Shown here: positions 2,854-58,329 of the stretch, in pieces | Layout: each line of letters opens with the position of its first letter | Numbering within the stretch: position 1 is the first letter of the stretch | Assembly (NCBI GenBank): GCA_964371025.1 | Contig: CAYJKH010000001.1 | Span: 2,077-66,076, forward strand | DNA from: an uncultured Muribaculaceae bacterium | Lineage (GTDB): Bacteria > Bacillota_I > Bacilli_A > RF39 > UBA660 | DNA: 64,000 bases | Reading direction: 5' to 3' | The notes under the pieces: model-generated | The model's input: only the letters and a program-made list of their open reading frames with translations | Databases searched by the model: none | Told to the model about the DNA's origin: nothing | Made by a program: the position numbers and the translations under genes

Positions 2854-2940
2854 ACACTTTTTTCTAAAATAAATGTAAAACTATTGATAGAAAAAAAAAT
2901 ATATGTTATTCTTAATAAGAATAAAGGATAGGTGAAGAGG

Positions 2941-3525: not shown

Positions 3526-3555
3526 AAATAAATAAAAAAGAGAGGAATTATAATT

Positions 3556-4146: not shown

Positions 4147-4240
4147 TATAAAATAAAATTAAGTAGGTGATAGTATTAAAAAGAGCTATATAAAAATTTT
4201 TCTACTATTTAGTACATTACTAGGATTAATATTAGCTAAT

Positions 4241-8152: not shown

Positions 8153-8226
8153 AATAGTGAATAATATTTGCTATTTTTTTAGTTTTATGTTATTATATAG
8201 ACCAAGTTTATTGCATGGAGGAAATT

Positions 8227-10117: not shown

Positions 10118-10141
10118 AATATTTAAAAGGGGGTGAAGGTG

Positions 10142-29739: not shown

Positions 29740-29740
29740 T

Positions 29741-30373: not shown

Positions 30374-30387
30374 TTGCTTTTTTTATT
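30362..30387 (+). terminator. rho-independent terminator for 29741-30373
   Basis: AGCAAT-gaata-ATTGCT followed by TTTTTTTATT; stop codon in loop. Confidence 0.6.
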
Positions 30388-30389
30388 GC

Positions 30390-30414
30390 AATAAAAAAGA
30401 GTGATTAACACTCT
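30390..30414 (-). terminator. rho-independent terminator for convergent LCP gene
   Basis: AGAGTG-attaa-CACTCT hairpin preceded on + strand by AAAAAA (U-tract on minus strand). Confidence 0.55.
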
Positions 30415-30433
30415 ATATTTATTAGTTTAAATA

Positions 30434-32425: not shown

Positions 32426-32605
32426 AAATATACCTCCGTGGTATATATTATACCATATTTCTATATATATTTTTGGATACTAAAAAAAAACATATAGATA
32501 TAAGTGTCTATTTACGTAAAATAGGCTCTTATACTATATAGGGTAAAAACTAAACTTTGTTATTTTTGGTATTTGTTGGTATAATTTAAATGTATAAAAT
32601 CGGAG

Positions 32606-35600
32606 GTGGATATATTGAAAAATAAATTTTTTATGATAATTTTCTTTTTAATGTTTAGTTTTTTAATTTTACCAGAAGATGTTGATGCATTAACTGTTTC
32701 TCAATATAAATCTAGAAATGTTTGTTCTAATTATGAAGTAGCTGAAGCAAAAACAGATGGTAGTGCAGTATATAAAAAATGTTTTACAACATATAGTGAA
32801 GCAGAAACCTATATGAATTCATCTTCAATTACAAATTTAATAATATTTGATTCAACTGCTACTAATACAGTTATAGCAAGTGCTAAATATGCTTTAGTAG
32901 ATTTAACAATTCCATCAGGGTTAACATACTTTTATGAACAAAGAGATTTAACTACAAGAGTATATACTTATATGGATACAGGTTCACTATATGGTGGAGT
33001 AGATGGAGCATTCATTGACGTTTATTATCCTAAATCGGCAAAAGTTATGATCGGTGGATTAGAAGCTTGGATTAAAAAAAGTGATTATGAAATAGTACCA
33101 CTAGCATGGGTTAAATCAAGTAGTTCTTATACAGTAACTGATCACATTAAACATAATTACGTTAGTAAAATTCAAGAAACTTACTCAGGTACCAAAGGAT
33201 CAACGATTGGACCAAAACCAGACCAACTTAATAAAGGAACTTATTATTCATATGATGGACACTATTTTTATACAAGTCGATATACCATGATAAGTGATTA
33301 TAAAAAAGGAGTTAGAACATCATCTGTTAATAAATCATCTCCTTATTATAATTACTATATGTATTTAAGTAATCATTCTAAAACAAATTACTCATCACTC
33401 AATATTGATGAATATATTAGAAATAATATGGGTTTAACAAGGACAACTTATGGTGAGTTGGCAACAAGCAATTCTTCTAAATTGTATGGACAAGGGACAT
33501 TTTTTTATAACTCTCAACAAGTATATGGAGTTAATGCAGTTTTATCACTTTCTTTAAGTCGAAATGAAACTGGTAACGGAAGAAGTTCACTTGCAATTAA
33601 TAATAATAATGGTTTTGGACTTAATGCCGTTGATTCAAGTCCAACTGAATCAGCATATTGGTATCCATCATTTGCATCAAGTATTAATGGATATGCCTCT
33701 AAATGGGTAACTGATGGATATGCTGATCCTGCTGATTGGAGATATTTTGGACCAGCTTTTGGAGATAAATATATTGGAATGAATGTTAAGTATGCATCAG
33801 ACACTTATTGGAGTGAAAAGATGGCTGCTAACTATTATAGCTTAGATTTAGCTAAAGGTTTACAAGATTATAATTATTATCAACTAGGAAAAACAAATGG
33901 AGTGGTAAAAGCCTATTTAAGTGCTTCAACTTCTTCAAAGATTATGTATACATACCCAGAAAAAGATGATAATGTTTTGATAGTTGGAGAATATGGTAAT
34001 TATTATATTTTACAAAGTGATGTGAGTATAACAAACGGAGTAGGATCTACTAATGGAGTTTATAATTGGAACTCTTATGTATATGTTTTAAAATCTAGTA
34101 TAACTAAAATAAATACAGCTAAAAGTGGTTATAAAAAACCTAGTGAAGTGTACCAATATGCTGATGCTACTTATACATATGATTTAATGGATGATAATAC
34201 TACATTAAGTCCAAAAGTAGCAGTTACAACAAAGAATTTATCATATTATTATGATTCAACACTAAGTCAAAAAACAGGTAAGACTCTACTTAGTAATAAG
34301 TATATAATGGTTTATTCAATAGCTAAAAACTCTAAAGGGGAAGCTGTTGCTTATTTAGTAACATCGGATTATAAATTTGATCAAAAACACTGGATACCAG
34401 CAGGAGGAATTACTTTTAAAACATCAAGTTATGGTAAAGTTAAATTAACTAACTTAGATGGATATTTTACAGAAGTATATTCGACTGCTTCTACAAGTTC
34501 AACTATGATAGGAGGTCAATTCTCATATTCATATGTTCCAATACTAGAAACAAAAACAGTATCTGGAAAAACTTGGTATAAAGTACCAGTTAGTTTAACA
34601 TCTACATCAAATGCATATGGATGGACATTGAAATCTTATACAAATGTTGCAATTACACCTTACAGTTATAATGGAACAGCAGATAATAATGCACTAGCTA
34701 AAAATACTGCTCCTGTAATTACAGCAAGTAATAAGGAAGTGACTATCAAAAAATCACTTGATTTAATGAAAGATGTATCAGCTACTGATAAAGAAGACGG
34801 AAATTTAACTACATCAATAAAAATTACAAGTAATAATATAAACTATAACGCTATAGGAACATATTCAGTTACATATTCAGTTACTGATTTAGATAATTTA
34901 ACAACTACTAAAACAATTTCTGTTAAAGTTATAGCAGATGAAGCTCCAGTAATTAATGCGAGTAATCAAAATGTTATAACTAATTCAGAATTTAATCCAC
35001 TAATTGGAGTAACAGCAACAGATAAAGAAGATGGAACTATTACTAAAGTAGAGGTAACATCAAATAATGTTGATGTTACTACTAATGGTAATTATTCTGT
35101 TACTTATAAAGTAGTAGATAGTTATGGTAATATAACTACTAAAACAATAGCGGTAGTAGTTGCAGAAAAATTCTTAACTGAAAAAGATTCTTTATTCTAT
35201 TTTGATTATTTAAAAGAAGTAGATGGTAAATTAGAATTAAAAGGATATCAAACTATTAATGGAATTGATCATTTATTAAATACAAATATTGATTATACTA
35301 TTATTTTTGAAAATAAAGATACAAATGAAATATTTACAGATACTATGACTAGAATTACTAATACGACAGAAATGACTAGACCTATTTTTGGAGTAGATAA
35401 TAAAAATTATACATACTCTTGGTTTAAATATTCAATTGATACAAGTAAGTTTGAAAACGGAAATTATATAATGTATGTTTTAGCAGAAAGTGATGAATAT
35501 TATACAAAAAATTTAGTAAATAATAAATTATTTAGACCTCAAGTAGGAGGTTACACAACTGCTTCAAGTAGTACAATTATTAGAAATGACTATAATGTAA

Positions 35601-36112
35601 AAACAACTCCAGTAGAGTTAATTATAAGAGGTGAAGAATTAGCTAAGAAGACAGCAGATACATATTTTAACCAATTTGATACATATAGAGCATTTGAATT
35701 TACAGAAGATAATAAACTACATTTAATGGGATTAAGCTATTCATATGGAATGGATTTAGGAAAAGACACTAATGTAGAAAGAACAATAATTTTTGAAAAT
35801 AAAGAAACATATGAAACATATAAAATGGATTTAGGAAGTATAACTACTGGTCTATATCCGGCTATGTTACCTGAAGATGATAAATTATCAAAAACAAGGG
35901 CATGGTATGATAAAGAATTAGATATATCTAATATTCCAAAAGGAGAATATATTCTTTATATAACTACCAAATCTAATGTAACTGATATTTATGAGTTTTC
36001 CGAAAAGCTTAGTAGAACACTAGATCATGTTAAAGCTACAATAAATGAAAAGAATTATTCATTTACAATTAATCATGATAAAGGTAGTAGAATAGAAATG
36101 AAAGTAGAATAG
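32606..36112 (+). CDS. secreted cell-wall hydrolase: N-acetylglucosaminidase (LytD/GH73-like) domain followed by Ig-like (DUF5011-type) domains
   Basis: Signal peptide. The segment SRNETGNGRSSLAINNNNGFGLNAVD matches the glucosaminidase family E(T/S)GwG...NN.FGi core. Two consecutive TDKEDG(N/T) Ig-like repeats (residues ~700-850). 1168 aa. Confidence 0.6.
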   Translation: MDILKNKFFMIIFFLMFSFLILPEDVDALTVSQYKSRNVCSNYEVAEAKTDGSAVYKKCFTTYSEAETYMNSSSITNLIIFDSTATNTVIASAKYALVDLTIPSGLTYFYEQRDLTTRVYTYMDTGSLYGGVDGAFIDVYYPKSAKVMIGGLEAWIKKSDYEIVPLAWVKSSSSYTVTDHIKHNYVSKIQETYSGTKGSTIGPKPDQLNKGTYYSYDGHYFYTSRYTMISDYKKGVRTSSVNKSSPYYNYYMYLSNHSKTNYSSLNIDEYIRNNMGLTRTTYGELATSNSSKLYGQGTFFYNSQQVYGVNAVLSLSLSRNETGNGRSSLAINNNNGFGLNAVDSSPTESAYWYPSFASSINGYASKWVTDGYADPADWRYFGPAFGDKYIGMNVKYASDTYWSEKMAANYYSLDLAKGLQDYNYYQLGKTNGVVKAYLSASTSSKIMYTYPEKDDNVLIVGEYGNYYILQSDVSITNGVGSTNGVYNWNSYVYVLKSSITKINTAKSGYKKPSEVYQYADATYTYDLMDDNTTLSPKVAVTTKNLSYYYDSTLSQKTGKTLLSNKYIMVYSIAKNSKGEAVAYLVTSDYKFDQKHWIPAGGITFKTSSYGKVKLTNLDGYFTEVYSTASTSSTMIGGQFSYSYVPILETKTVSGKTWYKVPVSLTSTSNAYGWTLKSYTNVAITPYSYNGTADNNALAKNTAPVITASNKEVTIKKSLDLMKDVSATDKEDGNLTTSIKITSNNINYNAIGTYSVTYSVTDLDNLTTTKTISVKVIADEAPVINASNQNVITNSEFNPLIGVTATDKEDGTITKVEVTSNNVDVTTNGNYSVTYKVVDSYGNITTKTIAVVVAEKFLTEKDSLFYFDYLKEVDGKLELKGYQTINGIDHLLNTNIDYTIIFENKDTNEIFTDTMTRITNTTEMTRPIFGVDNKNYTYSWFKYSIDTSKFENGNYIMYVLAESDEYYTKNLVNNKLFRPQVGGYTTASSSTIIRNDYNVKTTPVELIIRGEELAKKTADTYFNQFDTYRAFEFTEDNKLHLMGLSYSYGMDLGKDTNVERTIIFENKETYETYKMDLGSITTGLYPAMLPEDDKLSKTRAWYDKELDISNIPKGEYILYITTKSNVTDIYEFSEKLSRTLDHVKATINEKNYSFTINHDKGSRIEMKVE

Positions 36113-36132
36113 CATATGCTATTCTTTTTTTT
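36107..36132 (+). terminator. rho-independent terminator
   Basis: perfect palindrome GAATAGCATATGCTATTC followed by T8; stop codon within stem. Confidence 0.8.
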
Positions 36133-36138
36133 ACAATT

Positions 36139-36165
36139 AAAAACATATGCTTAGCATATGTTTTT
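36139..36165 (-). terminator. rho-independent terminator for convergent PASTA-protein gene (hairpin flanked by A5 and T5, potentially bidirectional)
   Basis: AAAAA-CATATGC-tta-GCATATG-TTTTT. Confidence 0.6.
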
Positions 36166-36176
36166 AATTTATATAA

Positions 36177-38027
36177 TTATTTAACAATAGTAACTGTATA
36201 TGTATCACAGTAATTAACTACCATATCTGCTCCATTACATACTGAACCACTATTAGTACTTCCGTTAGAGCAGCTATCAACTAAATTGAAAGCCCATTTT
36301 ATACTACCATAATAGCTTTGTATCATACTTTTAACTTGTGCTCCCGTATTACCAACAGGGAAGTAAACAGTAGTTGTTTTAGTTCTATCACATGTTGGAG
36401 TTGTTGACCCACTACTATTATTATTGCTGCTTCCGCTATTACTATTATTACTACTACTTGAAGAAGAACTAGTTTGTTTATTACTATTTGAACTACTTGC
36501 TGTATATTTACCACTTGAAACAGTTAGTGTGATAGAAGTATCACCACTAACTTTAGAACCACTACTTATAGATTGTGATATAATATTTCCTTCTTTAACA
36601 GTAGAGGAAAAAGCGTAAGTATAAGCTGCTTTAAGACCGGCTTTTTCAATTGATGAAGTGGCGTTAGCTTTACTAAGACCTACAACATTAGGAACACTTA
36701 TTTCTTTACCATCTGATATAGTAATGATAATAACATCTCCGTTTTTTATAACATCACCAATATTATGAGAAATTTTAATTATTTCTCCTTGTTTAACGTC
36801 ATTATTAAATTCATTTTTTTCTTCATATTTAACATTGTTTTCATTTGCCCAGTCATAAAAATCATCAATATTAGAAAATTCAGGCATTTTTAATTTTCCT
36901 TTTGATAATACAAATGAAATAATTGTACCTTCTTCAACAATATCACCAAATTCATAGTTAGCACTAATAAAATTATTTTCTTTAATTGAATCATCATATT
37001 TATAACTAAAAGTTAATTTAAGTCTATTTGTTATTATATAATTTGTTATTTCTTCTAAGTCCATCTTTTCAAAATCAGGTAGTTTAATTTCTTTTCCTTT
37101 ACTTAATGTAACAATAATTTCTTCATCATTAGGTTTAACCATTGTGCCAGATTTAATACTTTGTTTTCCTACTAAACCACGGTCAGTGTTGTTAAAGAAA
37201 TCTTTTTCAAATTTATATTTTAAACCATGTTTTTTCATGTAAAACATAACTTCAAACTCTGTTTTATCTATTAAATTAATTAACTTAGTTTCTACAAATT
37301 CATCTTCTCCTAAAGAGAAAGTTAATTCTAAGGGGTCACTTCTTTTCATATTACCACTTGCATTTTGCTCAATTACAGTGTCTTTTGCTTTAGCATCTTT
37401 TATAAAAGTAACTCCAACATTATTTAAATGATTTTCTAAAACATAATCAATAACTCTTTCATCACTCCAAGTTAACATGTTAGGAACTAAAATTTCTTTA
37501 TCCGGATTAGGTCCTGATGAAACTGCTATTGTTAGAGTTTTAACATCATTAATAGAAGTACCTTCTTTTATATCTTGTCCAATTATATGGTATTCTTCAA
37601 TCATATCACTGTATTCATATACTTGCTCAATTGCAACATTATTTTTACTTGCCCAAGCAACTACTTCAGTTAGATTCTCATTTTCAAAATCTAATACTTT
37701 ATTAAAAGCGGGAATATTAATAATATTAGTAGCAAGTAATATATTAAAGGTGTTAAATAATATTAAAATTATAGCACTAATAAATAGGATTACTTTATTT
37801 CTAATTCTATTAGAGATACAAATAAATGTAAAAAGAATAGAAAAACAAAATAATAATACTAAACTAATTACATTAGCAATGATATCTATATTATTATCAA
37901 ATATTATCGTAGCAGTAATACTACAAATATTAGATAGAATAACCACTAATAATAAGAAATTTATAAATTTATTTTTATCTTTTTTCTTTATTTCCTTTAC
38001 TTTGTCAAAATCTTTATTTATATCCAT
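36177..38027 (-). CDS. membrane protein with ~5 tandem PASTA-like domains, Ser/Asn-rich linker and Cys-containing C-terminal domain; no kinase or PBP domain
   Basis: Two N-terminal TM helices, then repeated ~65-aa units of PASTA type (e.g. VPNVVGLSKANATSSIEKAGLKA...GDTSITLTVSSG, VPNMLTWSDERVIDYVLENH...). Then a poly-S/N tract (SSSSSSSNNSNSGSSNNNSSG) and a final ~90 aa with 6 Cys. Confidence 0.55.
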   Translation of the reverse strand: MDINKDFDKVKEIKKKDKNKFINFLLLVVILSNICSITATIIFDNNIDIIANVISLVLLFCFSILFTFICISNRIRNKVILFISAIILILFNTFNILLATNIINIPAFNKVLDFENENLTEVVAWASKNNVAIEQVYEYSDMIEEYHIIGQDIKEGTSINDVKTLTIAVSSGPNPDKEILVPNMLTWSDERVIDYVLENHLNNVGVTFIKDAKAKDTVIEQNASGNMKRSDPLELTFSLGEDEFVETKLINLIDKTEFEVMFYMKKHGLKYKFEKDFFNNTDRGLVGKQSIKSGTMVKPNDEEIIVTLSKGKEIKLPDFEKMDLEEITNYIITNRLKLTFSYKYDDSIKENNFISANYEFGDIVEEGTIISFVLSKGKLKMPEFSNIDDFYDWANENNVKYEEKNEFNNDVKQGEIIKISHNIGDVIKNGDVIIITISDGKEISVPNVVGLSKANATSSIEKAGLKAAYTYAFSSTVKEGNIISQSISSGSKVSGDTSITLTVSSGKYTASSSNSNKQTSSSSSSSNNSNSGSSNNNSSGSTTPTCDRTKTTTVYFPVGNTGAQVKSMIQSYYGSIKWAFNLVDSCSNGSTNSGSVCNGADMVVNYCDTYTVTIVK

Positions 38028-46527: not shown

Positions 46528-46869
46528 GTGTTAAATCAAGTAGTTTTAGTAGGGCGACTAGTAAGAGATATAGTTGTTAATAAAACAGAAAATGGTAAAA
46601 AAGTCACAACAGTATCTCTAGCAATTCCCAGAAGTTTTAAAAATATAGAAGGGAATTATGAAACAGATTTTATTGATTGTATATTATGGGAAGCAGTTGC
46701 TCAAAATACAGCTGATTACTGTAAAAAAGGGGATATAGTGGGAATAAAAGGAAGAATTCAATCAAGAATAATAGAGAAAAACAAAGAAGAAAAAGAACAT
46801 TTAATGGAAGTTATAGCAGAAAAAGTAACATTTTTATCAAGTAAAAAAGAAGAAGTAAATCCTAAGTAA
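46528..46869 (+). CDS. ssb: single-stranded DNA-binding protein (short OB-fold SSB lacking acidic C-terminal tail)
   Basis: MLNQVVLVGRLVRD..., ...TDFIDCILWEAVAQNTADYCKKGDIVGIKGRIQSR: SSB OB-fold pattern. Only 113 aa and ends ...KKEEVNPK, without the DDD(I/L)PF tip. GTG start behind GGAGG. Confidence 0.7.
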   Translation: MLNQVVLVGRLVRDIVVNKTENGKKVTTVSLAIPRSFKNIEGNYETDFIDCILWEAVAQNTADYCKKGDIVGIKGRIQSRIIEKNKEEKEHLMEVIAEKVTFLSSKKEEVNPK

Positions 46870-46969: not shown

Positions 46970-48196
46970 ATGGTTATAGATATTATAGATAAGAAAAGAT
47001 TAGGGAAAAGTCTTTCTTATAATGAATTAAGTTATATATTTAATGGTTATAAAGAAAAAAGTATTAAAGATTATCAAATGTCAGCATTATTAATGGCAAT
47101 TTGTATAAATGGAATGAAAGAAAAGGAAATATTTGATTTAACAAAAGTATTCTTAGAAACAAGTGGTAGATTAGATTTTTCTGATATAGTTGATAATAAA
47201 GTAGATAAACACTCAACTGGAGGAGTTGGAGATAAGACAACTTTAATAGTAGCTCCAATTGTAGCATCACTTGGAATTCCTGTTATAAAAATGAGTGGAA
47301 AAGGACTTGGAATAACAGGGGGAACTATTGATAAATTAGATTCAATTCCAGGATTTCAAACTAATTTAAGTATTTCTAATATCAAAAAACAAGTAAAAGA
47401 GATAGGAATAGCGATAACTTCCCAAACTTCTAATTTAGTTCCGCTTGATAAAATGATTTATAGTTTAAGAGATGTTAGTGGTACAACTAATTCAATTCCT
47501 TTAATTGCAGTTAGTATTATGAGTAAAAAAATAGCAAGTGGTGCTAATAAATTAGTTCTTGATATTAAGTATGGTAAAGGAGCTTTAATTAGTACTAAAA
47601 AAGAAGCAAAACAACTTAGTGATATTATGATTAAATTAGGGGAAAAATATAATATTGAGACAGTTTCTATTTTAAGTAATATGGACATTCCTCTAGGGAA
47701 AACAATTGGTAATTCACTAGAAGTAAAAGAAGCTATCGATATTTTAAGTGGAAAAGAAGAAGATAATAACTTAACAAAATTATGTGTTGAACTAGCAACA
47801 GAAATGGTAATGTTAGGAAAATCTATAAGTTATAACTCGGCAAAGTTATTAGTAAAAAATGCAATAGAAGATAAAAGTGCATATAATAAATTTATGGAAT
47901 TAGTTGCTTATCAAGGTGGTAACACGAAAAAATTAAAAACTACAAGAAAGTCTATTTTTATTAAATCCTCTGTTAAAGGAGAAATTAAAAGTATTAATGC
48001 TCATACTTTAGGAAAATTATCATTAAAACTTGGAGCAGGACGTATTAATAAAGATGATTTAATTAATTATGGAGTAGGTATTAAATTAAATAAATTAGTA
48101 GGAGATAAAGTAACTAAAGGAGAAACTTTATGTGAAATATTTGTAGAAGATGTTATTAATTTAGATGAAGTAAAAGAAATATTTGAAATTAAATAA
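46970..48196 (+). CDS. pdp: pyrimidine-nucleoside (thymidine) phosphorylase
   Basis: glycosyl-transferase family 3 motifs incl. KHSTGGVGDKTTL and SGRGLGITGGTIDKLDSIPGF; 408 aa. Confidence 0.88.
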   Translation: MVIDIIDKKRLGKSLSYNELSYIFNGYKEKSIKDYQMSALLMAICINGMKEKEIFDLTKVFLETSGRLDFSDIVDNKVDKHSTGGVGDKTTLIVAPIVASLGIPVIKMSGKGLGITGGTIDKLDSIPGFQTNLSISNIKKQVKEIGIAITSQTSNLVPLDKMIYSLRDVSGTTNSIPLIAVSIMSKKIASGANKLVLDIKYGKGALISTKKEAKQLSDIMIKLGEKYNIETVSILSNMDIPLGKTIGNSLEVKEAIDILSGKEEDNNLTKLCVELATEMVMLGKSISYNSAKLLVKNAIEDKSAYNKFMELVAYQGGNTKKLKTTRKSIFIKSSVKGEIKSINAHTLGKLSLKLGAGRINKDDLINYGVGIKLNKLVGDKVTKGETLCEIFVEDVINLDEVKEIFEIK

Positions 48197-48244
48197 ATAT
48201 TGTAAATATAATAATATTATTATATTATTATATTAAAGGAAGGT

Positions 48245-49411
48245 ATGAAAATGGAAAAAATATATATTGAAAACAATAAAAACGGAGATAAAAAACATAA
48301 AAATTATATTAATTTGTCAACTATTTCATCATTTATATTAGCATTTACAGCAATTGCATTAGTGGGAACTTCTTATTTTCTGGGAAATTCATATGCTTTA
48401 CCAGAAGTAAAAGAAAGTCTCCCGGATAATTTTACAACTTCAGTTCCATCTGCTAAAGTTAATGGTAACTCACCAAGTGGAGCATTTCCAATTATGGTTT
48501 ATAAAACTACTGGAGGAGAACTTGTATATTGCTTAGAAAGAGATATTAACTATACTGGTAATACTAACTATTCCAAAGATGGTTTAATTGAGGATTATGG
48601 TTTATTATATGTAATGGCGAATTCATATCCCCATAAAACTTTTAAAGATAAAGCAGGAGTAGCTTACCCTGAAGAAATCCAAGTATGGATAACACAAGCT
48701 ATGATATGGGAATATTTACATGATATAGGAGCGGCTAACAATACATCTGATACTGCTATGACTCTAGATTTATTAGAGAGTATAAGAGAATTAGATATAG
48801 ATGATGGGAATATTGCAAATGCAATTGATTTAGATGACTCTGTTTATAATTTATATATGAAAGATATTATAAATGTTGCCAAAACTTTAAAAACTCCACA
48901 AGGTAATTTATCTATAACAGCACAAAATGATAAAATGACTTTAACAAATGAAGGTAAATATTATCAAAGTTCATTAATTACAGTAACAGGAAGTCCTTCT
49001 GATAATTTCATTGGACATAAAATATCATTTACTGGTCCAAAAGATACGGTATTAATATCAGAAAATGGAGATATTATTACCAATCTTGATTTTGTTACAC
49101 CAAATACAAAATTTTATGTAAGAGTTCCAGTTGAGTCGGTTGATGAAAATAATAAAGTTATTAAATTAAGTACAACAGGATCTTTTAGATTATATGAAGG
49201 TTATTACTACAAATCACCAGGAGCTCAGACAATATCTTCAGTACATACTGTAGATAAACAATTAAGTCAAGGATTAGAAATTCCGATTAACTTAGAAATT
49301 AAAGCTCCAGATACGAAAGTAGATACTTCAATTATTATATACATTGTAGCAGGAGTAATCTTTGTTGCCGGAGTAATAATTATTGTAAGAAGTTCAAAGC
49401 CTAGAAAATAA
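48245..49411 (+). CDS. cell-wall-anchored thioester-domain (TED) pilin/adhesin paralog 1; sorting signal APDTK
   Basis: N-terminal signal/TM. Cys in GELVYCLERDIN paired with QVWITQAMIWEYL (TQxxIW thioester Gln motif). C-terminal KAPDTKVDTS + hydrophobic segment + RSSKPRK. Confidence 0.7.
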   Translation: MKMEKIYIENNKNGDKKHKNYINLSTISSFILAFTAIALVGTSYFLGNSYALPEVKESLPDNFTTSVPSAKVNGNSPSGAFPIMVYKTTGGELVYCLERDINYTGNTNYSKDGLIEDYGLLYVMANSYPHKTFKDKAGVAYPEEIQVWITQAMIWEYLHDIGAANNTSDTAMTLDLLESIRELDIDDGNIANAIDLDDSVYNLYMKDIINVAKTLKTPQGNLSITAQNDKMTLTNEGKYYQSSLITVTGSPSDNFIGHKISFTGPKDTVLISENGDIITNLDFVTPNTKFYVRVPVESVDENNKVIKLSTTGSFRLYEGYYYKSPGAQTISSVHTVDKQLSQGLEIPINLEIKAPDTKVDTSIIIYIVAGVIFVAGVIIIVRSSKPRK

Positions 49412-49530
49412 AAAGAGTAAAATCTTTTTATTTTTTTGTAAACTTTTTGTCAACGAAGTCAATTTACTTGTAAAACGCTTGATAATGTGTAAAGAAGAGT
49501 GTAATATAACATTAAAGGAAGGTGTATTAT

Positions 49531-50595
49531 ATGAAAAATAATATTAAAAAAATTACAAAACTTACTATGATAATAGCAGTATTTGCTACTATGATCTTTA
49601 GTAGTATTGCCCCTGTAAAGGCAACATCATTTTTAGATAAGTTTACAACAGCAACAATTGGTGCTAAAACAACAGGATCAGGCGGAACTACTCCAATTGC
49701 AGTATTTGAATACACTACTACTAGTGGTCAAATAGTTTATTGTTTGGAAAGGGATATTAACTTTGTAGCAGGAAGAGAATTTAATAAAAGTGAATTAATT
49801 AATGATTATGGATTAATGCATGTTATGTCAAATGTTTATCCACATAAAAAATTCACTGATTCAACTGGGGCTGAATTACCAAAAGGGCACCAAGTTTGGA
49901 TATCTCAAGTAATGATTTGGGAATATTTATACCAAACAAAAGCAGCTAATAATACTTCAACAACTTCTAATTCATTAGAATCTATTAAAGATATTAATAA
50001 ATTATTAACAGGAGATACAATAACGGACGAAGTAACTTATTCTAAATCTTTATATGAATTATATATGAAAGAAATTTTAGAAAAAGCTTATACTATAAAA
50101 GAACCAAATCCAAGTGTAAATATGGAAACTACAAGTAAATATATGACTTTATCGAGTGATGGTAAATATTATATGAGTAGTGCCATTAATATTACAACTT
50201 CAGATAGTGGAACTTACGGGCTAAAAGTAGAAGGTCCAACTGGAACACAAATAGTAGATAAAGATGGGAAAGTTGTAACAACAGGAATGCCGTCACAAGT
50301 ATTTATTAAAATACCAGTTGATTCAGTTACAGAAACTAATAAAAAAATAACACTAACTGCAACAGGAGATGCTAAAGCTTATGAAGGATATTATTATAAA
50401 GCGACTGGAGCACAAACTATTGCCTTTGTTGATACAAAAGATATCGGAGTAGATATTCCAATTACTTTAGAAATAAAAGCGCCAGATACAGCTATAGATG
50501 TTTCGAATTCAACTTATGTAATTGGAGCATTAATAATAGCAATAGGAGCATTTGCAGTAATTAATAGTAATAGAAAAAAAACAAGTCGTAGATAA
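49531..50595 (+). CDS. TED pilin/adhesin paralog 2 (SQxxIW variant); sorting signal APDTA
   Basis: GQIVYCLERDINF + QVWISQVMIWEYL; C-terminal KAPDTAIDVS + hydrophobic + NSNRKKTSRR; ATG 49531 behind AAAGGAAGGTG. Confidence 0.65.
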   Translation: MKNNIKKITKLTMIIAVFATMIFSSIAPVKATSFLDKFTTATIGAKTTGSGGTTPIAVFEYTTTSGQIVYCLERDINFVAGREFNKSELINDYGLMHVMSNVYPHKKFTDSTGAELPKGHQVWISQVMIWEYLYQTKAANNTSTTSNSLESIKDINKLLTGDTITDEVTYSKSLYELYMKEILEKAYTIKEPNPSVNMETTSKYMTLSSDGKYYMSSAINITTSDSGTYGLKVEGPTGTQIVDKDGKVVTTGMPSQVFIKIPVDSVTETNKKITLTATGDAKAYEGYYYKATGAQTIAFVDTKDIGVDIPITLEIKAPDTAIDVSNSTYVIGALIIAIGAFAVINSNRKKTSRR

Positions 50596-50600
50596 ATTTA

Positions 50601-50626
50601 AAAGAACTTAACAGTTCTTTTTTTCT
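50601..50626 (+). terminator. rho-independent terminator (partial read-through to paralog 3 possible)
   Basis: AAAGAACT-taac-AGTTCTTT followed by T-run. Confidence 0.6.
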
Positions 50627-50678
50627 TGATAAAATGTTTTTTTTAAGTTATTATATATATAGTAAAGAAGGTAGAATT

Positions 50679-51842
50679 ATGGGTAAAATAAATACTAAAA
50701 ATTTAATACTTATTGTAAGTAGTTTATTATTAATAATAGGAATAGGAATATATTATTTTAATCAACCATCATCTGCTCAAAAAGACTCTATTAGTCTAAA
50801 AGAATATAGTGAATATTTTGCAGTTACTATATTTAATAATGATTCAAAATATTATTCGGATCGTAATAATAGAATTAAAATAACACCTTATATAGATGAA
50901 AACAATAATTTTGTTTATACTCCATACATTTATGATGATTCATCTAGTGCTACGCTTAATACATTTTTACAAGAACAATTGATTACTGATCCAGGATATA
51001 AATATCTATTAGAAAATATATTTCCTAAAGTGGAGTGGGATAATAAATATTACTCTCCAGAACTAAAAGAAATTGATTTAAATGATTATGAAGATCCTAT
51101 AACTAAGGAACCAGATTATGTGATGTCACAATTAATTATATGGGCATATTACTACACTAAATACCCTGAAGAAGATAAAAATGAATATCTTAATAAAATA
51201 AAAGAAACTAAGTATATATTTTTTCAAGATGATGAGGTAAATGTAGATATTTATGGCGATTTATATGATGAAGTTATTAAGGATTTGGTTGATGAAGCCC
51301 TTCGTCAAAATGAACAGCCAGTTATAGACCCAGTTGTTAATGTTGTTAATACTGACAAAAATATAGCAGTAACTACAGATGAAGAATATTATCAAACAGG
51401 TGCTATAAATATAAGTAAGAGTAATATAGAAAATTATATTGATCATGAATTTATAATTAATGGACCAAAAGGAACTTATTTAATAGATGGTGATGGTAAT
51501 AAAATAGAAGGAAAAACTACAGCTACCGAAGTTTATGCAAGAATTCCAATTGATAATGTTACCGATGAAAATAAAGTAGTAGTATTAAATATGATATCTT
51601 ATTATGAGACAGATGAATTAGTTACATATGTTGATTCTAATGGAAATAGTTTAATATCTGTAAAACCAGTTATAAAAACGTTAAATAGTACTATTAATGT
51701 TCCTTTATTATTAAAAATAAATGTGCCAGATACTAATATATTTGTATCTAATAGTATTTATTTTATTGGAGCAATATTTTTATTATTAGGAGCAGGAGTG
51801 ATTTATTTATATGAGAGAAGAAAAAAGAAAATTAAAGAATAG
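50679..51842 (+). CDS. pilin-like paralog 3, TED-related but lacking the thioester Cys; sorting signal VPDTN
   Basis: Signal anchor MGKINTKNLILIVSSLLLIIGIGIYYF. SQLIIWAYYY block present, but no Cys in the preceding ~100 aa. C-terminal VPDTNIFVS + hydrophobic + YERRKKKIKE. Start at ATG 50679 behind AAGAAGG. Confidence 0.5.
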   Translation: MGKINTKNLILIVSSLLLIIGIGIYYFNQPSSAQKDSISLKEYSEYFAVTIFNNDSKYYSDRNNRIKITPYIDENNNFVYTPYIYDDSSSATLNTFLQEQLITDPGYKYLLENIFPKVEWDNKYYSPELKEIDLNDYEDPITKEPDYVMSQLIIWAYYYTKYPEEDKNEYLNKIKETKYIFFQDDEVNVDIYGDLYDEVIKDLVDEALRQNEQPVIDPVVNVVNTDKNIAVTTDEEYYQTGAINISKSNIENYIDHEFIINGPKGTYLIDGDGNKIEGKTTATEVYARIPIDNVTDENKVVVLNMISYYETDELVTYVDSNGNSLISVKPVIKTLNSTINVPLLLKINVPDTNIFVSNSIYFIGAIFLLLGAGVIYLYERRKKKIKE

Positions 51843-52458
51843 TCACTTAATAATCATTGGAGTTATTTTAATGTTAATAGGAGTTACAATATTATCTTCT
51901 AATTACATTTTAAAATTAAAAAATGAAGTTTTTACTGATGCCCTTATTATGATTTATAACGATAAAGGTGAAGTTGTAAATGAAATATTAAATGATGTTC
52001 CGGAAGTGGATGTCGTTAATGATATACCTAATGCTCCTAAAGCAAAAAAAATAGATTATTCTAAGTACTTGGGAGTTTTAGAAATACCTAAAATTAGTTT
52101 GAAGAGTGGCTTTTATGATTTAGATTCTAAATATAATAACATTGAAAAAAATGTTACACTTTCACTAGGGTCAAGAATGCCAGATGTTGAAAATGGTAAC
52201 TTAATATTAATGGCACATTCTGGTAATGCTTACATTGCTTATTTTGCCTATTTATATAAATTAAAAGTAAATGATAAAATGTATGTTACTTATAATAATA
52301 TAAAATATGAATATGAATTAGTAGATATTTACGATGTTGAAAAAACAGGAACGGTTGAAATAAAGAGAAATTATAGTAAAAAAACACTAACTTTAATTAC
52401 ATGTACAAAAGATAGTGATACTAAACAAACTGTATATATAGCAGAAATGGTAGAATAG
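51811..52458 (+). CDS. sortase (TLxTC catalytic motif), paralog of 9458-10117
   Basis: N-terminal TM, YLGVLEIPKISL, LILMAHSGNA (His), TLTLITCTKDS (Cys); ends ...YIAEMVE like the first sortase (...YIAELISVE). Confidence 0.8.
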   Translation: MREEKRKLKNSHLIIIGVILMLIGVTILSSNYILKLKNEVFTDALIMIYNDKGEVVNEILNDVPEVDVVNDIPNAPKAKKIDYSKYLGVLEIPKISLKSGFYDLDSKYNNIEKNVTLSLGSRMPDVENGNLILMAHSGNAYIAYFAYLYKLKVNDKMYVTYNNIKYEYELVDIYDVEKTGTVEIKRNYSKKTLTLITCTKDSDTKQTVYIAEMVE

Positions 52459-52466
52459 GAGGAAAT

Positions 52467-53042
52467 ATGACATTTAATTTAATTGATCAACTTCAAATAA
52501 TATTTAATTATATATTTTCATCTTTTTTAGGATTAGAATTATTTATATTTGTTATTTTATTTACAGCAGTTTTAATTTTAAATATATTTTATGATTATAA
52601 AATAATTAAAGTTTGTTCATTATCTCTTATGATAGCTTTTATAATTGGAATATTTATATTTAATAGAGATTATGTGATAGATAGCATTTCTTTATTTATT
52701 AAATTTATAATAGAATATATATATTTTCCTTCTATATTAATGTATTTTTTAATCATAGTAGCAGTAACTATATATATGATTATTAATATGTATTCAACTA
52801 AAATATCAAAAAGAAAGAAAATTTTTAATTATTCTGTATTTTCAATTCTATACTTTTGCTTTTTTTCATTCTTAGCTATTTCTATAATAGGGGAATTTGA
52901 TTTATCAAATGAAAGCATTTTATACCAAGATGAGGTTATATTAGCCTTAATTCAAGTAAGTAATTTATTTTTATTTTCTTTTATTATATTTGATCTTATA
53001 TATCATTTATATAAGTTTCTACAAAAAAAAGATAAAGAATAG
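52467..53042 (+). CDS. hypothetical polytopic membrane protein
   Basis: 5 predicted TM helices; RBS AGGAGG; no known motif. Confidence 0.4.
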   Translation: MTFNLIDQLQIIFNYIFSSFLGLELFIFVILFTAVLILNIFYDYKIIKVCSLSLMIAFIIGIFIFNRDYVIDSISLFIKFIIEYIYFPSILMYFLIIVAVTIYMIINMYSTKISKRKKIFNYSVFSILYFCFFSFLAISIIGEFDLSNESILYQDEVILALIQVSNLFLFSFIIFDLIYHLYKFLQKKDKE

Positions 53043-54541: not shown

Positions 54542-55789
54542 ATGAACAAACATAGTCAAAAACGTAGTCGTAAGATTAAAAAATTAGTTTTAGTTACTGT
54601 TTTATGTGCTGTTTTACTTGGTGTATCTACATATGCATGGTTTATCGGTATGAAAAAAGTAAATGTTACTAGTTTTGATATCAAAATCGCTACAACTGAA
54701 AGCTTACAATTATCATTAAATGGTACGGCTTTCGCGCAAGATATTGCAATATCTGAAACAACTTACAATGTTGAAACAGATACTACAAATCCACAAAATG
54801 CTGTTTATGCAGGGCATACAAACAGTTGGGGAGATTTAGTACCTGTATCTACTGTTGGAGTTATTGATACAACAGCATCAAGACTTACAATGTATGAAAA
54901 AGGAAGTTTAACAACTTCACCAGGTGGTTATAGAATTATGGCCAGTGAAGTAACAAATAAGGGAGCAGCTGAAGCTAAAGGTTATGTTGCATTTGATTTA
55001 TTTGTTAAAAACTTGTCTGGAGAAGAATATTATGTTGAAAACAATCAACTTAATGAAGAAGCAATTTATTTAAATATTGATTCTAAAGTTGAAGGAAGTG
55101 GAACTACAACAGGAGCTGAAAACAGTGGGATTGAAAACTCAATTAGAGTTGCATTTGCACAAATTGGTCGTGTAGAAGCTACTACAACTACAGCATCAAC
55201 TATTACAGGAATTAGCTGTTCTACAGCTGGAGAAGTTACTGGAATTTGTAGAAATGCTACAATCTGGGAACCAAATGATACTAAACATGTACAAAATGCT
55301 ATTAACTGGTATGATACTTCATGTGCATCAAGAACAGGAGCAGATATTACTGCGGCAGCTTCATACGGAGCATTCGGATCTTGTGCAGAGGTTACTACAA
55401 CAGGAGCAGTGCCAACTTATGCAGTAGCTCAAGAAATTGATTATACTGATCAAGTTGATGCTTATGATGGAGCAGCATTAAATGGATATACTGGAAGTAC
55501 TACTTCTGGACATTTACAAGCTATGGATTACTTTACTGATACTGAAAGAGATTTATCAGGAACTGCACGTCCAACATTCATGACGTTAGCGCCAAATAGT
55601 ATTACTAAAGTAAGAGTTTATATTTACTTAGAAGGTCAAGATATTGATAATTATGATTTTGCTTCATTAGGAGAAAAAATCACTATGAACTTCGGATTTA
55701 CTAAAGAAAGATTCTTCGGTGAAGATATTGGATATACAGGAACACCTACATTACCAGATGATGTAGTAGAAGCTGAACAAAATCCATAA
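54542..55789 (+). CDS. large exported protein with SipW-cognate-like signal peptide (TasA/camelysin-like candidate fibre subunit), paralog 1
   Basis: Basic N-terminus, h-region LVLVTVLCAVLLGVSTYAWFIGMKK with YAWF right after it (compare TasA TWAAFND, CalY TFAYFSD). Conserved C-terminal block GTARPTFMTLAPNSITKVRVYIYLEGQDIDNYDFASLG...NFGFTKERF. Conserved Cys pairs; acidic C-terminal tail. Confidence 0.6.
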   Translation: MNKHSQKRSRKIKKLVLVTVLCAVLLGVSTYAWFIGMKKVNVTSFDIKIATTESLQLSLNGTAFAQDIAISETTYNVETDTTNPQNAVYAGHTNSWGDLVPVSTVGVIDTTASRLTMYEKGSLTTSPGGYRIMASEVTNKGAAEAKGYVAFDLFVKNLSGEEYYVENNQLNEEAIYLNIDSKVEGSGTTTGAENSGIENSIRVAFAQIGRVEATTTTASTITGISCSTAGEVTGICRNATIWEPNDTKHVQNAINWYDTSCASRTGADITAAASYGAFGSCAEVTTTGAVPTYAVAQEIDYTDQVDAYDGAALNGYTGSTTSGHLQAMDYFTDTERDLSGTARPTFMTLAPNSITKVRVYIYLEGQDIDNYDFASLGEKITMNFGFTKERFFGEDIGYTGTPTLPDDVVEAEQNP

Positions 55790-55883
55790 TATAAATTATA
55801 GATTAAAGTTAATATTATATATAAATATACTATAAGTTACTTATTATAAGTAGCTTATAGATATAAATTTGAAAGGGAATAAT

Positions 55884-57170
55884 ATGAAAAAAAGAACAAA
55901 CACTAAAAAATTAAGAAGAACTATTATGGTATTCTTATTATGTGCTGTTGTATTAGGTGTATCTACGTATGCATGGTTCATCGGTATGAAAAAAGTAAAT
56001 GTTAGTAGTTTCGATATTAATATTGCTACTACTGAAGGTTTATTCTTATCAATGACTGGTGAAGAAGATTCATGGAAATATACTTTAGATGCAGCGGGTG
56101 CTGATGTTACAGCTTACCCAAATAATTCTAATACATGGGCAACAGATGGTTTAATTCCAATGTCATCAATTGGTGATATGGATTCTACATCTTCAACTAT
56201 GATGATGTATGAAAAAGGAAGTTTAACAGCTTCACCTGGTGGGTACCGTTTACTTGCTAGTAGAGTAGAAAATTATGCAGCAACTGCAGATGGTTTTGAA
56301 GTAGGAAAAGGTTATGTAGCTTTTGACTTATTCATTAAAAACTTATCTGGAGAAGAATATTATACAGATAATGAGCCTCTAAATGAAGAAGCAATTTACT
56401 TAAATACTAACTCATCTGTAGGAGTAGCTACAACTGGTGGAGTTGCTAATACAGGAATTGAAAATTCAGTTAGAGTTGCATTTGCACAAATTGGTCGTGT
56501 TGAAGCTACAACTACAAATGAAACAAATATTCAAGATATTGAATGTTCTGATGTGGCAGCTGATACTGATCAAGCTCAAGTAACTGGTATTTGTAGAAAT
56601 GCAGCAATTTGGGAGCCAAATGATACTGCACATAATGCAAATGCAATTGGTTGGTACAACACTGCGTGTGATCCAAGAAATACTGATGGAACAGATGTAA
56701 CTGATCCTTCATCATTTGATGAATCTGGAACTTGTGGAACTGTAGCAAATGGAACAGCTAATAAAACTTATGCAATTAGTAGAGAAATCAATATTGCTGA
56801 TAATGTAGATGTATATGATGGATTAGAATATAATACATATGAAGCTAATACTAATACATATGATGAATATCTTGCAGCTGATGCAGCAGCAAAAGCTGAT
56901 ATGAAATTAGTAGATTTCGATGCATTTACTGATACAGAAAAAAATCTTACAGGAACTGCACGTCCAACATTTATGACGTTAGCTCCAAACAGTATTACTA
57001 AAGTAAGAGTATATGTATACTTAGAAGGACAAGATGTTGATAACTATGATTTTGCATCATTAGGAGCAGCAATCTCTGTTAACTTTGGATTTACTAAAGA
57101 AAGATTTGAAACAAGTGATATTACTGATTACGATGGACCAGCTCCAGTTGTGGGTACTGACACTCCTTAA
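55884..57170 (+). CDS. large exported SipW-cognate-like protein, paralog 2
   Basis: The N-terminal 45 aa and the C-terminal ~70 aa are near-identical to paralog 1 (VLGVSTYAWFIGMKKVNV...; GTARPTFMTLAPNSITKVRVYVYLEGQDVDNYDFASLG). The central region has diverged. Start at ATG 55884 behind AAGGGA. Confidence 0.6.
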   Translation: MKKRTNTKKLRRTIMVFLLCAVVLGVSTYAWFIGMKKVNVSSFDINIATTEGLFLSMTGEEDSWKYTLDAAGADVTAYPNNSNTWATDGLIPMSSIGDMDSTSSTMMMYEKGSLTASPGGYRLLASRVENYAATADGFEVGKGYVAFDLFIKNLSGEEYYTDNEPLNEEAIYLNTNSSVGVATTGGVANTGIENSVRVAFAQIGRVEATTTNETNIQDIECSDVAADTDQAQVTGICRNAAIWEPNDTAHNANAIGWYNTACDPRNTDGTDVTDPSSFDESGTCGTVANGTANKTYAISREINIADNVDVYDGLEYNTYEANTNTYDEYLAADAAAKADMKLVDFDAFTDTEKNLTGTARPTFMTLAPNSITKVRVYVYLEGQDVDNYDFASLGAAISVNFGFTKERFETSDITDYDGPAPVVGTDTP

Positions 57171-57199
57171 TCAATAATAAAGAAAACTATATATTGGAT

Positions 57200-57228
57200 A
57201 AAGAGTAATCAAATTACTCTTTATTTAT
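57200..57228 (+). terminator. possible rho-independent terminator/attenuator
   Basis: AAGAGTAAT-caa-ATTACTCTT followed by TTATTTAT (weak U-tract). Confidence 0.45.
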
Positions 57229-57249
57229 ATATATATAATAGGTGGTATT

Positions 57250-58329
57250 ATGGAAGAAAATAAAAATGAAGAGCAAGTAATTGTTATTAAGAAAATAAGG
57301 AAAAGAATGTCAAAGAAAAAGAAATATTTAACAATATTTTATATCTTTTTGCTTACTGTTTTACTAATTGTTACTACTTATGCATGGTTTTCTACAGCAT
57401 TAAATGTTCAAATTAGGGATTTTAATGTAGTAGCAGCCAAAAATAGTGGACTTTCGATATCGTTTGATGCTATTAATTATGATACTTTCCTAGAAATATC
57501 TCGAGAAAATATAATTGAAGATTTAGGAGCTAGATACCCAACTCATACTAATCATTGGTCTGATAATGGACTTGTACCAGTATCTACAAACGGAATAGGA
57601 TCTATTCCAGATAAATTTGATTTTTATTTTACAGATGGAATATATTATTTAAATAATGATAAAGAACAACCATTCTTAAGAACTTTAAAATCAAAAGAAG
57701 ATGATCCTAATCCATATTCATACTTCACGTCATTTGATATATTTTTGAAAAATGAAACAGGTTCTCCTGTACCAGATAATTTATATTTAACAAATGAAAC
57801 AAAAGCTATTTTTAATGGTGAATATTCAGAAGAAATGGATAGTTTATTAAATACTATGCGATTTGGTTTTGTTAAAATAGGATCAGTAGACCATGATACT
57901 CCAGCTACAACAGTTCAAAATATGACATGTATTGGAACTTGTGAGGATGTTATTTATGAACCATATCATACGACACATACTGATTTATCAATTGAAAGAG
58001 CTAAAAAATATGGAATTAATTTAAGAGATGGTTCGGCATTTCCAACATTTGGAATGATTAAAGCAGGTGGTCCAATTATGATGAAAAATGCAGTAAGTGG
58101 TTCCACTAGTTTAGAACCAGAGTATTTTAGATTACAAGAAACATTTAATTCACAAGAATTAAGTCAATCTTTATTTGAAGTGCCAGATGGTGTTACTAAG
58201 GTGAGAGTTTATGCTTGGTTAGAAGCACAAGATATTGACAGTTTAGAGACTAACTCAACAGGGGCAGAGTTGACATTATCAATTGATTTTGAGAAAGATA
58301 CTGCTGGTTGGGAAGCATTTAATTATTAA
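57250..58329 (+). CDS. exported SipW-cognate-like protein, divergent paralog 3
   Basis: Signal LTIFYIFLLTVLLIVTTYAWFSTALNV (YAWF). The C-terminal VTKVRVYAWLEAQDIDSLE...LSIDFEKD parallels the paralog 1/2 C-block. CxxxC pair (CIGTC). RBS AGGTGG. Confidence 0.55.
   Translation: MEENKNEEQVIVIKKIRKRMSKKKKYLTIFYIFLLTVLLIVTTYAWFSTALNVQIRDFNVVAAKNSGLSISFDAINYDTFLEISRENIIEDLGARYPTHTNHWSDNGLVPVSTNGIGSIPDKFDFYFTDGIYYLNNDKEQPFLRTLKSKEDDPNPYSYFTSFDIFLKNETGSPVPDNLYLTNETKAIFNGEYSEEMDSLLNTMRFGFVKIGSVDHDTPATTVQNMTCIGTCEDVIYEPYHTTHTDLSIERAKKYGINLRDGSAFPTFGMIKAGGPIMMKNAVSGSTSLEPEYFRLQETFNSQELSQSLFEVPDGVTKVRVYAWLEAQDIDSLETNSTGAELTLSIDFEKDTAGWEAFNY

Follow-up and report, generated by a model that had tools for sequence, protein, structure and literature searches.

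How should a tandem array of three secreted paralogs, each ending in a sorting signal and followed directly by a sortase gene, be read: as the subunits of a sortase-assembled pilus, or as separate surface adhesins that share one anchoring enzyme? The question is raised by a locus in a 64,000-nucleotide stretch of DNA from an uncultured Muribaculaceae bacterium (lineage Bacillota_I; Bacilli_A; RF39; UBA660 in GTDB; assembly GCA_964371025.1, contig CAYJKH010000001.1, positions 2,077 to 66,076), which we analyzed as a whole and refer to as the window (G+C ~25%). Five co-oriented open reading frames (ORFs) sit between the gene for pyrimidine-nucleoside phosphorylase (pynp) and genes for membrane and surface proteins: the paralogs TED1, TED2, and TED3, named for the thioester domain (TED), then the sortase SRT2 and the polytopic membrane protein MEM2. 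The three tandem paralogs and the sortase gene behind them had been reported in a preliminary description of this DNA, and these ORFs are indeed present in the region that it described. From their sequences and predicted structures, we consider it probable that TED1–3 are surface adhesins anchored as monomers by the sortase, each of a minimal TIE type consisting of a signal peptide, a class II TED fold, and an [AV]PDT-x sorting signal.

Fold and bond-forming residues of the paralogs

The paralogy of the three proteins is far beyond chance, because TED1 and TED2 are 41–43% identical and TED3 matches TED1 over 299 residues (BLASTP E=6e-22). The Pfam TED model (PF08341) recognizes TED1 (36.2 bits) and TED2 (32.8 bits) above its gathering cut-off of 22, and gives no match to TED3. 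AlphaFold2 models of TED1 and TED3, built on 37 family sequences, have pLDDT values of 83 and 81.5, respectively. In Foldseek searches, the TED1 model retrieved 6fwy (E=5e-14) and 6fwv (E=3e-13) with probability 1.00, and the TED3 model likewise retrieved 6fwy (E=5e-11, probability 1.00); these class II TEDs, from Enterococcus faecium TIE86 (6fwy) and Bacillus anthracis BaTIE (6fwv), are the only significant PDB fold matches for both models. Searches of the PDB by sequence, using TED1 or the family profile, returned only a weak match to the TED 5dcq. The suggestion that the array uses TED-type subunits is thus borne out by the Pfam matches of TED1 and TED2 and by the class II fold of the predicted structures.

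In the TED1 model, an N-terminal barrel of strands is followed by three helices, a sandwich of ~75 residues (219–293), and a long P/Q β-hairpin (303–321 and 328–345) that carries Gln326 at its tip. This predicted topology agrees with that published for class II TEDs, including the insertion of the sandwich between α3 and strand P as a slipknot (PMC6194298). The sorting motif follows within ~10 residues of the predicted hairpin (strand Q), and the ectodomain would therefore consist of one TED, without a stalk; indeed, Pfam matched no SpaA/CnaB stalk domains in TED1–3.

The thioester Cys lies in a motif of strand C in which [YFL]C is followed by a hydrophobic and a hydrophilic residue; it reads VYCLE in both TED1 (Cys94) and TED2 (Cys71), and the Cys column is kept in 36 of the 37 family members. 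The TQxxΦW motif of helix α2 (Φ, hydrophobic) takes the form TQAMIW in TED1, SQVMIW in TED2, and SQLIIW in TED3, with Gln and Trp invariant in all 37. In the preliminary description, this Gln was taken to be the partner of the Cys in paralogs 1 and 2; the Cys half of that claim stands, but the Gln half does not, as Miller et al. (2018, PMC6194298) state that the Gln and Trp of TQxxΦW only flank the thioester, which can form without them. In solved class II domains, it is a Gln of strand Q, close to the C-terminal end of the domain, that forms the bond (Cys71–Gln266 in BaTIE, Cys88–Gln292 in EfmTIE86; PMC6194298). Its counterpart here stands in a GAQT[IV] block close to the C-terminus, and this Gln is kept in 35 of the 37 aligned sequences. 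Of the two exceptions, one is TED3 and the other, with a Gln two positions further on, is probably misaligned. The bond partners predicted from the alignment and topology, rather than from coordinates, are Cys94–Gln326 in TED1 and Cys71–Gln295 in TED2. To the extent that sequence and modeled fold can tell, TED1 and TED2 have the testable features of class II TED adhesins.

The case of TED3 is different. The preliminary description had noted that the third paralog lacks the thioester Cys and is probably nonreactive, and the evidence is stronger than was claimed: there is no Cys in the whole protein (no in-frame TGY), and both bond partners, not only the Cys, are lost. Thr81 (ACT) occupies the aligned Cys position and Asn323 (AAT) the bond-Gln column, each two substitutions away from the respective codon. 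A Cys hidden by sequencing error was considered and rejected, as it would require two double substitutions in a frame without any TGY. Because both bond-forming residues are lost, TED3 should be unable to form a thioester and would act noncovalently. The bond Cys and Gln have been called the only universally conserved residues of TEDs in the literature, and TED3, which has neither of these defining residues, should not be counted functionally among the thioester domains. Candidate roles for it include a noncovalent (e.g., lectin-like) binder, a spacer, and a competitor. An ester cross-link between Thr81 and Asn323 in place of the thioester is chemically conceivable, but it would be without precedent and we regard it as a remote prospect.

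Could TED3 instead be a decaying, functionless duplicate, an incipient pseudogene whose differences reflect relaxed selection only? It has the longest branch in the family in a neighbor-joining tree and is only 21–29% identical to all other members; it fails the Pfam TED model; and a search of 5.8 billion proteins returned TED3 itself and no ortholog. Among 76 family-conserved columns, 35 are lost in TED3, including those of the active-site neighborhood (in TED1 numbering, neighboring conserved residues that are gone include Glu96, Leu118/119, Gln144, Trp146, Tyr315, Gly317, and Tyr319). The remaining 41, which include the sorting signal, are kept; SQLIIW and invariant Asp, Gly, and Tyr residues are retained, as are the signal peptide, the anchor with its transmembrane helix and basic tail, and a confidently predicted fold. 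Moreover, stops should occur about once in 10 codons at this base composition, and an open frame of 387 codons would arise by chance with P=6e-18. TED3 also has its own ribosome-binding site, overlaps the sortase gene translationally, and shares 8 of 14 ortholog-type residues in its C-terminal transmembrane segment, compared with 4 of 14 in TED1 or TED2. We consider decay very unlikely. The intact frame, the ribosome-binding site, and the 41 retained columns indicate that the TED3 gene is maintained under selection.

Sorting signals and an atypical sortase

The xPDTx anchors described for all three paralogs hold up: behind each of APDTK (TED1), APDTA (TED2), and VPDTN (TED3) come a hydrophobic segment, predicted to be helical, and then a basic tail. 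The pentapeptide [AV]PDT[KAN] thus stands in the usual tripartite layout, and the Pfam and TIGR anchor models score it below their cut-offs. The proposal of a noncanonical sorting motif paired with a dedicated second sortase is likewise supported, with [AV]PDT-x signals encoded next to SRT2. Orthologous TEDs share an unusually conserved C-terminal membrane segment, AQTVYFIGLIVLLCGVGIIYANAKP, which has diverged in the three paralogs of the window, least in TED3. The conservation of this segment suggests that it may be specifically recognized inside the membrane, by the sortase or by the MEM protein.

SRT2 is identified as a sortase by Pfam PF04203 (58.6 bits, cut-off 26.6) and TIGR01076 (57.8 bits, cut-off 39.35). 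The window encodes a second, parallel cassette, TED0–SRT1–MEM1, and the resemblance between its sortase and SRT2, already remarked upon in the preliminary description, amounts to 54% identity over the 134-residue catalytic domain. Searching the full library with SRT2 gave at least 110 clusters (50% identity) with E below 1e-30, which come mostly from gut metagenomes, and 856 with E below 1e-10. None of 150 representatives of this subfamily reached an NCBIfam class cut-off (140–166), the best scoring ~83 bits (E=2.8e-23). Against the model of the pilus-specific class C, SRT2 scores 61 bits and SRT1 83 bits, with a cut-off of 160, and the DP[FWY] lid motif is found in 0 of the 150 representatives. 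SRT2 ends 17 residues after its catalytic Cys (15–26 residues in the subfamily) and hence has no C-terminal membrane anchor. The class C-type features that a pilus would lead one to look for are thus missing.

Residue conservation, counted in the alignment of the 150 representatives (P0040–P0189) and given in SRT2 numbering, sets the subfamily apart. His136 is present in 150 and Cys198 in 149 of the 150. Eight residues after the Cys, Gln206 is Gln in 148, and twelve residues before it, Arg186 is Arg or Lys in 139. Profile alignment to PDB sequences places Gln206 in the column of the catalytic Arg of B. anthracis SrtA (2kw8) and one residue after the Arg of Clostridium perfringens SrtD; it presumably also aligns with Arg197 of Staphylococcus aureus SrtA. 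SRT1 has Gln208 at the Arg position, and no conserved Arg or Lys occurs downstream of the Cys in the subfamily alignment. All sortases have been said to contain a His–Cys–Arg triad (PMC13257024). Our literature searches found no description of Arg-less sortases, nor of TED–sortase pairs on conjugative elements; a megaplasmid preprint proved to be unrelated. Judged by its sequence, SRT2 is a member of the sortase superfamily that belongs to no described class and lacks the canonical catalytic Arg, which lies on strand β8.

The association with TED adhesins extends beyond the close relatives of the window. In five of five sampled distant subfamily members, the sortase gene directly follows and overlaps a gene for a surface protein with an (E)VPxT-x signal (EVPITG, EVPDTK, EVPNTQ, VPKTD, and VPDTE). 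At all four distant loci with enough sequence, this partner begins with an N-terminal TED (YC[ILV][EQ] and TQxxIW) followed by SpaA domains, and the Pfam TED model scored above its cut-off where tested. The subfamily sortases are therefore, by these gene arrangements, genetically coupled to TED adhesins with (E)VPxT-x signals. Our tentative view, which we put forward as possible but not as the likelier outcome, is that SRT1 and SRT2 represent an undescribed class, marked by the invariant Gln and possibly by an Arg relocated to twelve residues before the Cys, that has co-evolved, as a dedicated partner, with (E)VPxT-x thioester adhesins, both in conjugative elements and in the chromosomes of gut Bacilli that are uncultured, with TED3 as a disarmed domain kept for a noncovalent or regulatory role.

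Cassette conservation and competing readings of the array

The order ssb ... pynp, TED, sortase, MEM is common to 15 related genomes, which are uncultured gut Bacilli represented by "Tenericutes" or Mycoplasmatota metagenome-assembled genomes, including Candidatus Faecimonas intestinavium. A single TED gene is present at 14 of these loci and two at the remaining one; in each, the TED gene nearest the sortase overlaps the sortase gene. A MEM gene follows the sortase in 15 of 15 (L001–L014 and L017), encoding a protein of ~190–200 residues with no known domain. MEM2 itself has no match in Pfam or NCBIfam and is homologous to MEM1 (35% identity over 97 residues, E=1e-6). The conserved unit is therefore a TED adhesin, a sortase, and a polytopic membrane protein, and since 14 of the 15 loci carry one TED gene, the array of three is a lineage-specific expansion of a one-substrate cassette. 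In the neighbor-joining tree, TED1 and TED2 pair, with TED3 on a very long branch. The single-stranded DNA-binding protein (SSB) encoded upstream of pynp (46528–46869), in conserved synteny, has 113 residues and lacks the usual acidic C-terminal tip; similar short SSBs adjoin the sortase in two of the distant loci (L020 and L021).

This conservation bears directly on the idea, advanced in the preliminary description, that the array resembles a pilus operon of tip adhesin, backbone, and base, in which SRT2 would join the Thr of one paralog to a Lys of the next and TED3 would be the base. There are three paralogs, a dedicated sortase is encoded beside its substrates, and VPxTG-like signals are typical of pilins, as in RrgC (VPDTG); the signal of the tip pilin Cpa is VPPTG. 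A candidate acceptor also exists, as TED1–3 all share one Lys, in an EENK block, with 30 of 34 orthologs. In the TED1 model, however, this Lys falls at the start of strand P, adjoining the C-terminal end of strand Q, where it would be poorly placed for head-to-tail stacking. The SYPHK and VYPHKK blocks that had been proposed for comparison with a pilin motif fare no better: they belong to a TED-internal "NGYP...TQxxIW" block, which the family profile aligns to the solved streptococcal TED 5dcq, and their Lys is replaced in most orthologs (PHV, PNS, PHY, and others), so that SYPHK was rejected as a pilin motif. No CnaA or CnaB pilin domains were found in TED1–3, and structure prediction, recommended as a check, shows each modeled ectodomain (TED1 and TED3) as one class II TED. 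SRT2 falls well short of the class C threshold and has neither the lid motif nor a C-terminal transmembrane helix, and weak, AT-rich, terminator-like hairpins follow both TED1 and TED2. Comparative genomics is the strongest argument against a pilus, as the syntenic loci, all but one with a single TED gene, contain no conserved multisubunit operon. A tip, backbone, and base arrangement is thus very unlikely here, and polymerization by SRT2 is unlikely.

Alternatively, a conjugative element might be the setting or the source of the cassette, as an adhesin module for mating-pair formation or aggregation that serves mainly to attach cells to one another for DNA transfer rather than to a host. Two of the distant sortase–TED pairs lie in type IV secretion system (T4SS) or conjugative regions (L020 and L021, with T4SS_pilin, TraG/VirB4-like, SSB, and DUF3846 genes) and a third beside ParA/ParB (L019); a class II TED adhesin is required for conjugation of pLS20 (PMC8092201); the short SSB without an acidic tail is encoded just upstream; and MEM1 weakly matches a pilin-like conjugal transfer protein of integrative conjugative elements (19.4 bits, cut-off 40). 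Nevertheless, the cassette of the window sits among housekeeping genes in synteny conserved across 15 genomes, there are no T4SS genes in the window or in the 10-kb flanks, and no close homolog of the sortase occurs on PLSDB plasmids, where SRT2 finds only distant class D or class C sortases at ~30% identity. A conjugative role or origin appears unlikely on balance, if somewhat less so than a pilus.

We therefore return to separate, sortase-anchored adhesins as the preferred reading. In the mechanism that we propose, each protein would be exported by the Sec pathway, with its signal peptide cut after a conserved SYA-type site, and would fold into the predicted class II TED, the Cys–Gln thioester forming autocatalytically in TED1 and TED2. 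The C-terminal helix would retain the protein in the membrane until SRT2 cuts after the Thr of xPDT and transfers it to peptidoglycan, whereupon the thioester could covalently capture a nucleophile on a target surface (of the host, of mucus, or of another cell). In favor of this mechanism, the organism has wall-related genes (LCP, PASTA, glucosaminidase), and the locus of one relative adjoins VanY and PBP5. A tandem duplication specific to this lineage would have given rise to TED1 and TED2, whose variable N-terminal loop regions differ, so that their targets may differ as well. TED3 would keep the ancestral position, coupled transcriptionally and translationally to the sortase, and would be displayed in the same way while being chemically inert.

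Several observations weigh against this reading. The pilin-like character of VPxTG-type motifs has been mentioned above, and the residue after the Thr is K, A, or N in TED1–3 and never Gly, which is outside canonical sortase specificity; since the signals of the wider subfamily also vary at this position (G, S, K, E, Q, or D), K, A, and N are not exceptional for this system. It is also conceivable that a sortase lacking the canonical Arg has no activity or uses another mechanism. An ectodomain of ~300 residues without a stalk may barely clear a thick wall. Finally, the AlphaFold2 model of TED3 was built from an alignment dominated by Cys-containing homologs.

Gene map, neighboring genes, and known systems

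The starts of TED1 (MEKIY...), TED2 (MKNNIKK...), and TED3 (MGKINTK...) were corrected, as those in the mechanical ORF list are too far upstream; the choice rests on an AGGAAGG or AGAAGG ribosome-binding site 7–8 nt before the ATG and on database proteins (P0004, P0009, and P0001, respectively). An alternative TED3 start at 50634 lacks a ribosome-binding site and lies upstream of the promoter-like site, and was rejected as less likely. The TED3 gene overlaps the start of the sortase gene by 32 nt. The promoter-like sites are consensus matches only, and such sites are no more frequent in the region than in shuffled sequence. Orthologous TEDs also share a conserved N-terminal MEKIYMENN before the signal-peptide core (48251–48280 in the window; TED genes of L001–L014).

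Table 1. Positions of the genes, motifs, and putative signals discussed in the text (window coordinates, unless a distant locus is named)
Feature	Position	Strand	Description
pynp	46970–48196		pyrimidine-nucleoside phosphorylase gene
Promoter-like site upstream of TED1	48183–48212	+	TTGAAA-18-TATAAT; 11/12 consensus matches; consensus match only
TED1	48251–49411	+	386 aa; signal peptide, single class II thioester domain (predicted), APDTK sorting signal
TED1 Cys94	48530–48532	+	
TED1 TQAMIW	48692–48709	+	
TED1 GAQTI	49220–49234	+	contains Gln326
TED1 APDTK	49304–49318	+	
Hairpin and U-tract after TED1	49405–49437	+	AT-rich, terminator-like, probably leaky; -8.6 kcal/mol, z=-3.1 vs shuffles
TED2	49531–50595	+	354-aa paralog; Pfam TED match; start by ribosome-binding site and P0009
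TED2 VYCLE	49735–49749	+	contains Cys71
TED2 SQVMIW	49903–49920	+	
TED2 GAQTI	50407–50421	+	contains Gln295
TED2 APDTA	50479–50493	+	
Hairpin and U-tract after TED2	50600–50624	+	terminator-like; -6.9 kcal/mol, z=-2.0
Promoter-like site upstream of TED3	50626–50654	+	TTGATA-17-TATTAT; 10/12 matches; consensus match only
TED3	50679–51842	+	387-aa thioester-less paralog; start by ribosome-binding site and P0001
TED3 Thr81	50919–50921	+	ACT
TED3 SQLIIW	51126–51143	+	
TED3 Asn323	51645–51647	+	AAT
TED3 VPDTN	51723–51737	+	
SRT2	51811–52458	+	215-aa sortase; N-terminal transmembrane anchor, no C-terminal one; Pfam Sortase match
SRT2 AHSG	52213–52224	+	contains His136
SRT2 IKRNY	52360–52374	+	contains Arg186
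SRT2 LITCT	52393–52407	+	contains Cys198
SRT2 Gln206	52426–52428	+	
MEM2	52467–53042	+	191 aa; polytopic in the membrane by hydropathy (5 or more hydrophobic segments); conserved in synteny
TED0–SRT1–MEM1	8215–11074	+	second, parallel cassette
TED0	8215–9477	+	TED and one SpaA/CnaB-type domain; Cys67, TQIALW, NMQNI, VPNTS
SRT1	9458–10117	+	sortase
MEM1	10133–11074	+	313-aa polytopic membrane protein
Distant locus L018			
Distant locus L019	3276–6657		
Distant locus L020	3555–6642		
Distant locus L021	3261–6624		
Distant locus L022	4061–6612		

Elsewhere in the window, other genes for surface and secreted proteins were found. A signal peptidase I of the archaeal (SipW-like) type, with a polytopic domain fused at its N-terminus, is encoded at 4241–5305 (region 2932–5305), adjoined by two small secreted proteins (2932–4146). 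Three paralogous secreted proteins with "TYAWF" N-terminal segments and no family matches lie at 54542–58329, and a 683-residue surface protein at 18978–21029 contains ~14 PARCEL repeats, as in surface lipoproteins of Mycoplasma and Listeria. A cluster of wall genes at 27631–38027 encodes an LtaS-like sulfatase, an LCP plus PASTA protein, a 1168-residue glucosaminidase with Ig-like domains, and a further PASTA protein; judging by these genes, the organism does have a peptidoglycan wall despite its "Tenericutes-like" relatives.

Among bacterial proteins, only thioester adhesins are known to attach to their targets by a covalent bond. TED3 would thus provide a natural negative control that separates the covalent from the noncovalent share of adhesion, and the stalk-less, single-TED architecture offers a minimal model for class II TEDs. 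The array itself is moderately interesting, and would be more so if the His–Cys–Gln sortase subfamily is active and undescribed. The SRT2 subfamily runs against the statement that the His–Cys–Arg triad is universal; if its members are active, protein engineering would gain a new specificity (VPxT-x, with tolerance at the +1 position), and the display of covalent adhesins by gut Bacilli with reduced genomes, and by some conjugative elements, would be accounted for.

Among known systems, the FCT pilus of Streptococcus pyogenes has a TED-bearing tip adhesin, Cpa, with a VPPTG signal that is joined by a pilus-specific sortase, and the window locus is similar in placing a TED protein with a VPxT-type signal beside a dedicated sortase. 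The TEDs of Cpa are of class I and sit within isopeptide domains, and Cpa is joined to the backbone pilin FctA, which has a pilin Lys; by contrast, the window locus lacks both a backbone pilin and a pilin motif, and its sortase shows none of the features of the pilus type. The best sequence matches of SRT2 are C. perfringens SrtD (4d70), the Ebp SrtC (24rr), and B. anthracis SrtA (2kw8). SRT2 shares with class D and class C sortases the PF04203 fold, the N-terminal membrane anchor, the His in xHSG, and the TLITC Cys motif, and differs from them in its sub-cut-off scores, the Gln in place of Arg, the Arg or Lys twelve residues before the Cys, its short C-terminal end, and its VPxT-x TED substrates. 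TIE(pLS20) of B. subtilis is a class II TED surface adhesin, as TED1 and TED2 are predicted to be, but it has no sorting signal and is sortase-independent (PMC8092201). The locus of the window also differs in its chromosomal position and in its synteny across genomes. The closest counterparts of TED1–3 are the class II TIE adhesins BaTIE (6fwv), EfmTIE86 (6fwy), and SaTIE (Walden et al. 2015, PMC4450167; PMC6194298), which have the fold predicted for the paralogs, a signal peptide, a sortase-type C-terminal anchor, and the [YFL]C, TQxxΦW, and ΦQζΦΦ motifs (ζ, hydrophilic), the bond Cys and Gln being shared by TED1 and TED2 only. These adhesins carry an isopeptide or ester stalk and are anchored through LPxTG by the housekeeping sortase, whereas the ectodomains of TED1–3 comprise one TED and are followed by [AV]PDT-x signals beside a dedicated sortase. 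What distinguishes this locus from known sortase-anchored thioester adhesins is therefore the missing stalk, the non-LPxTG signal, and the sortase of its own.

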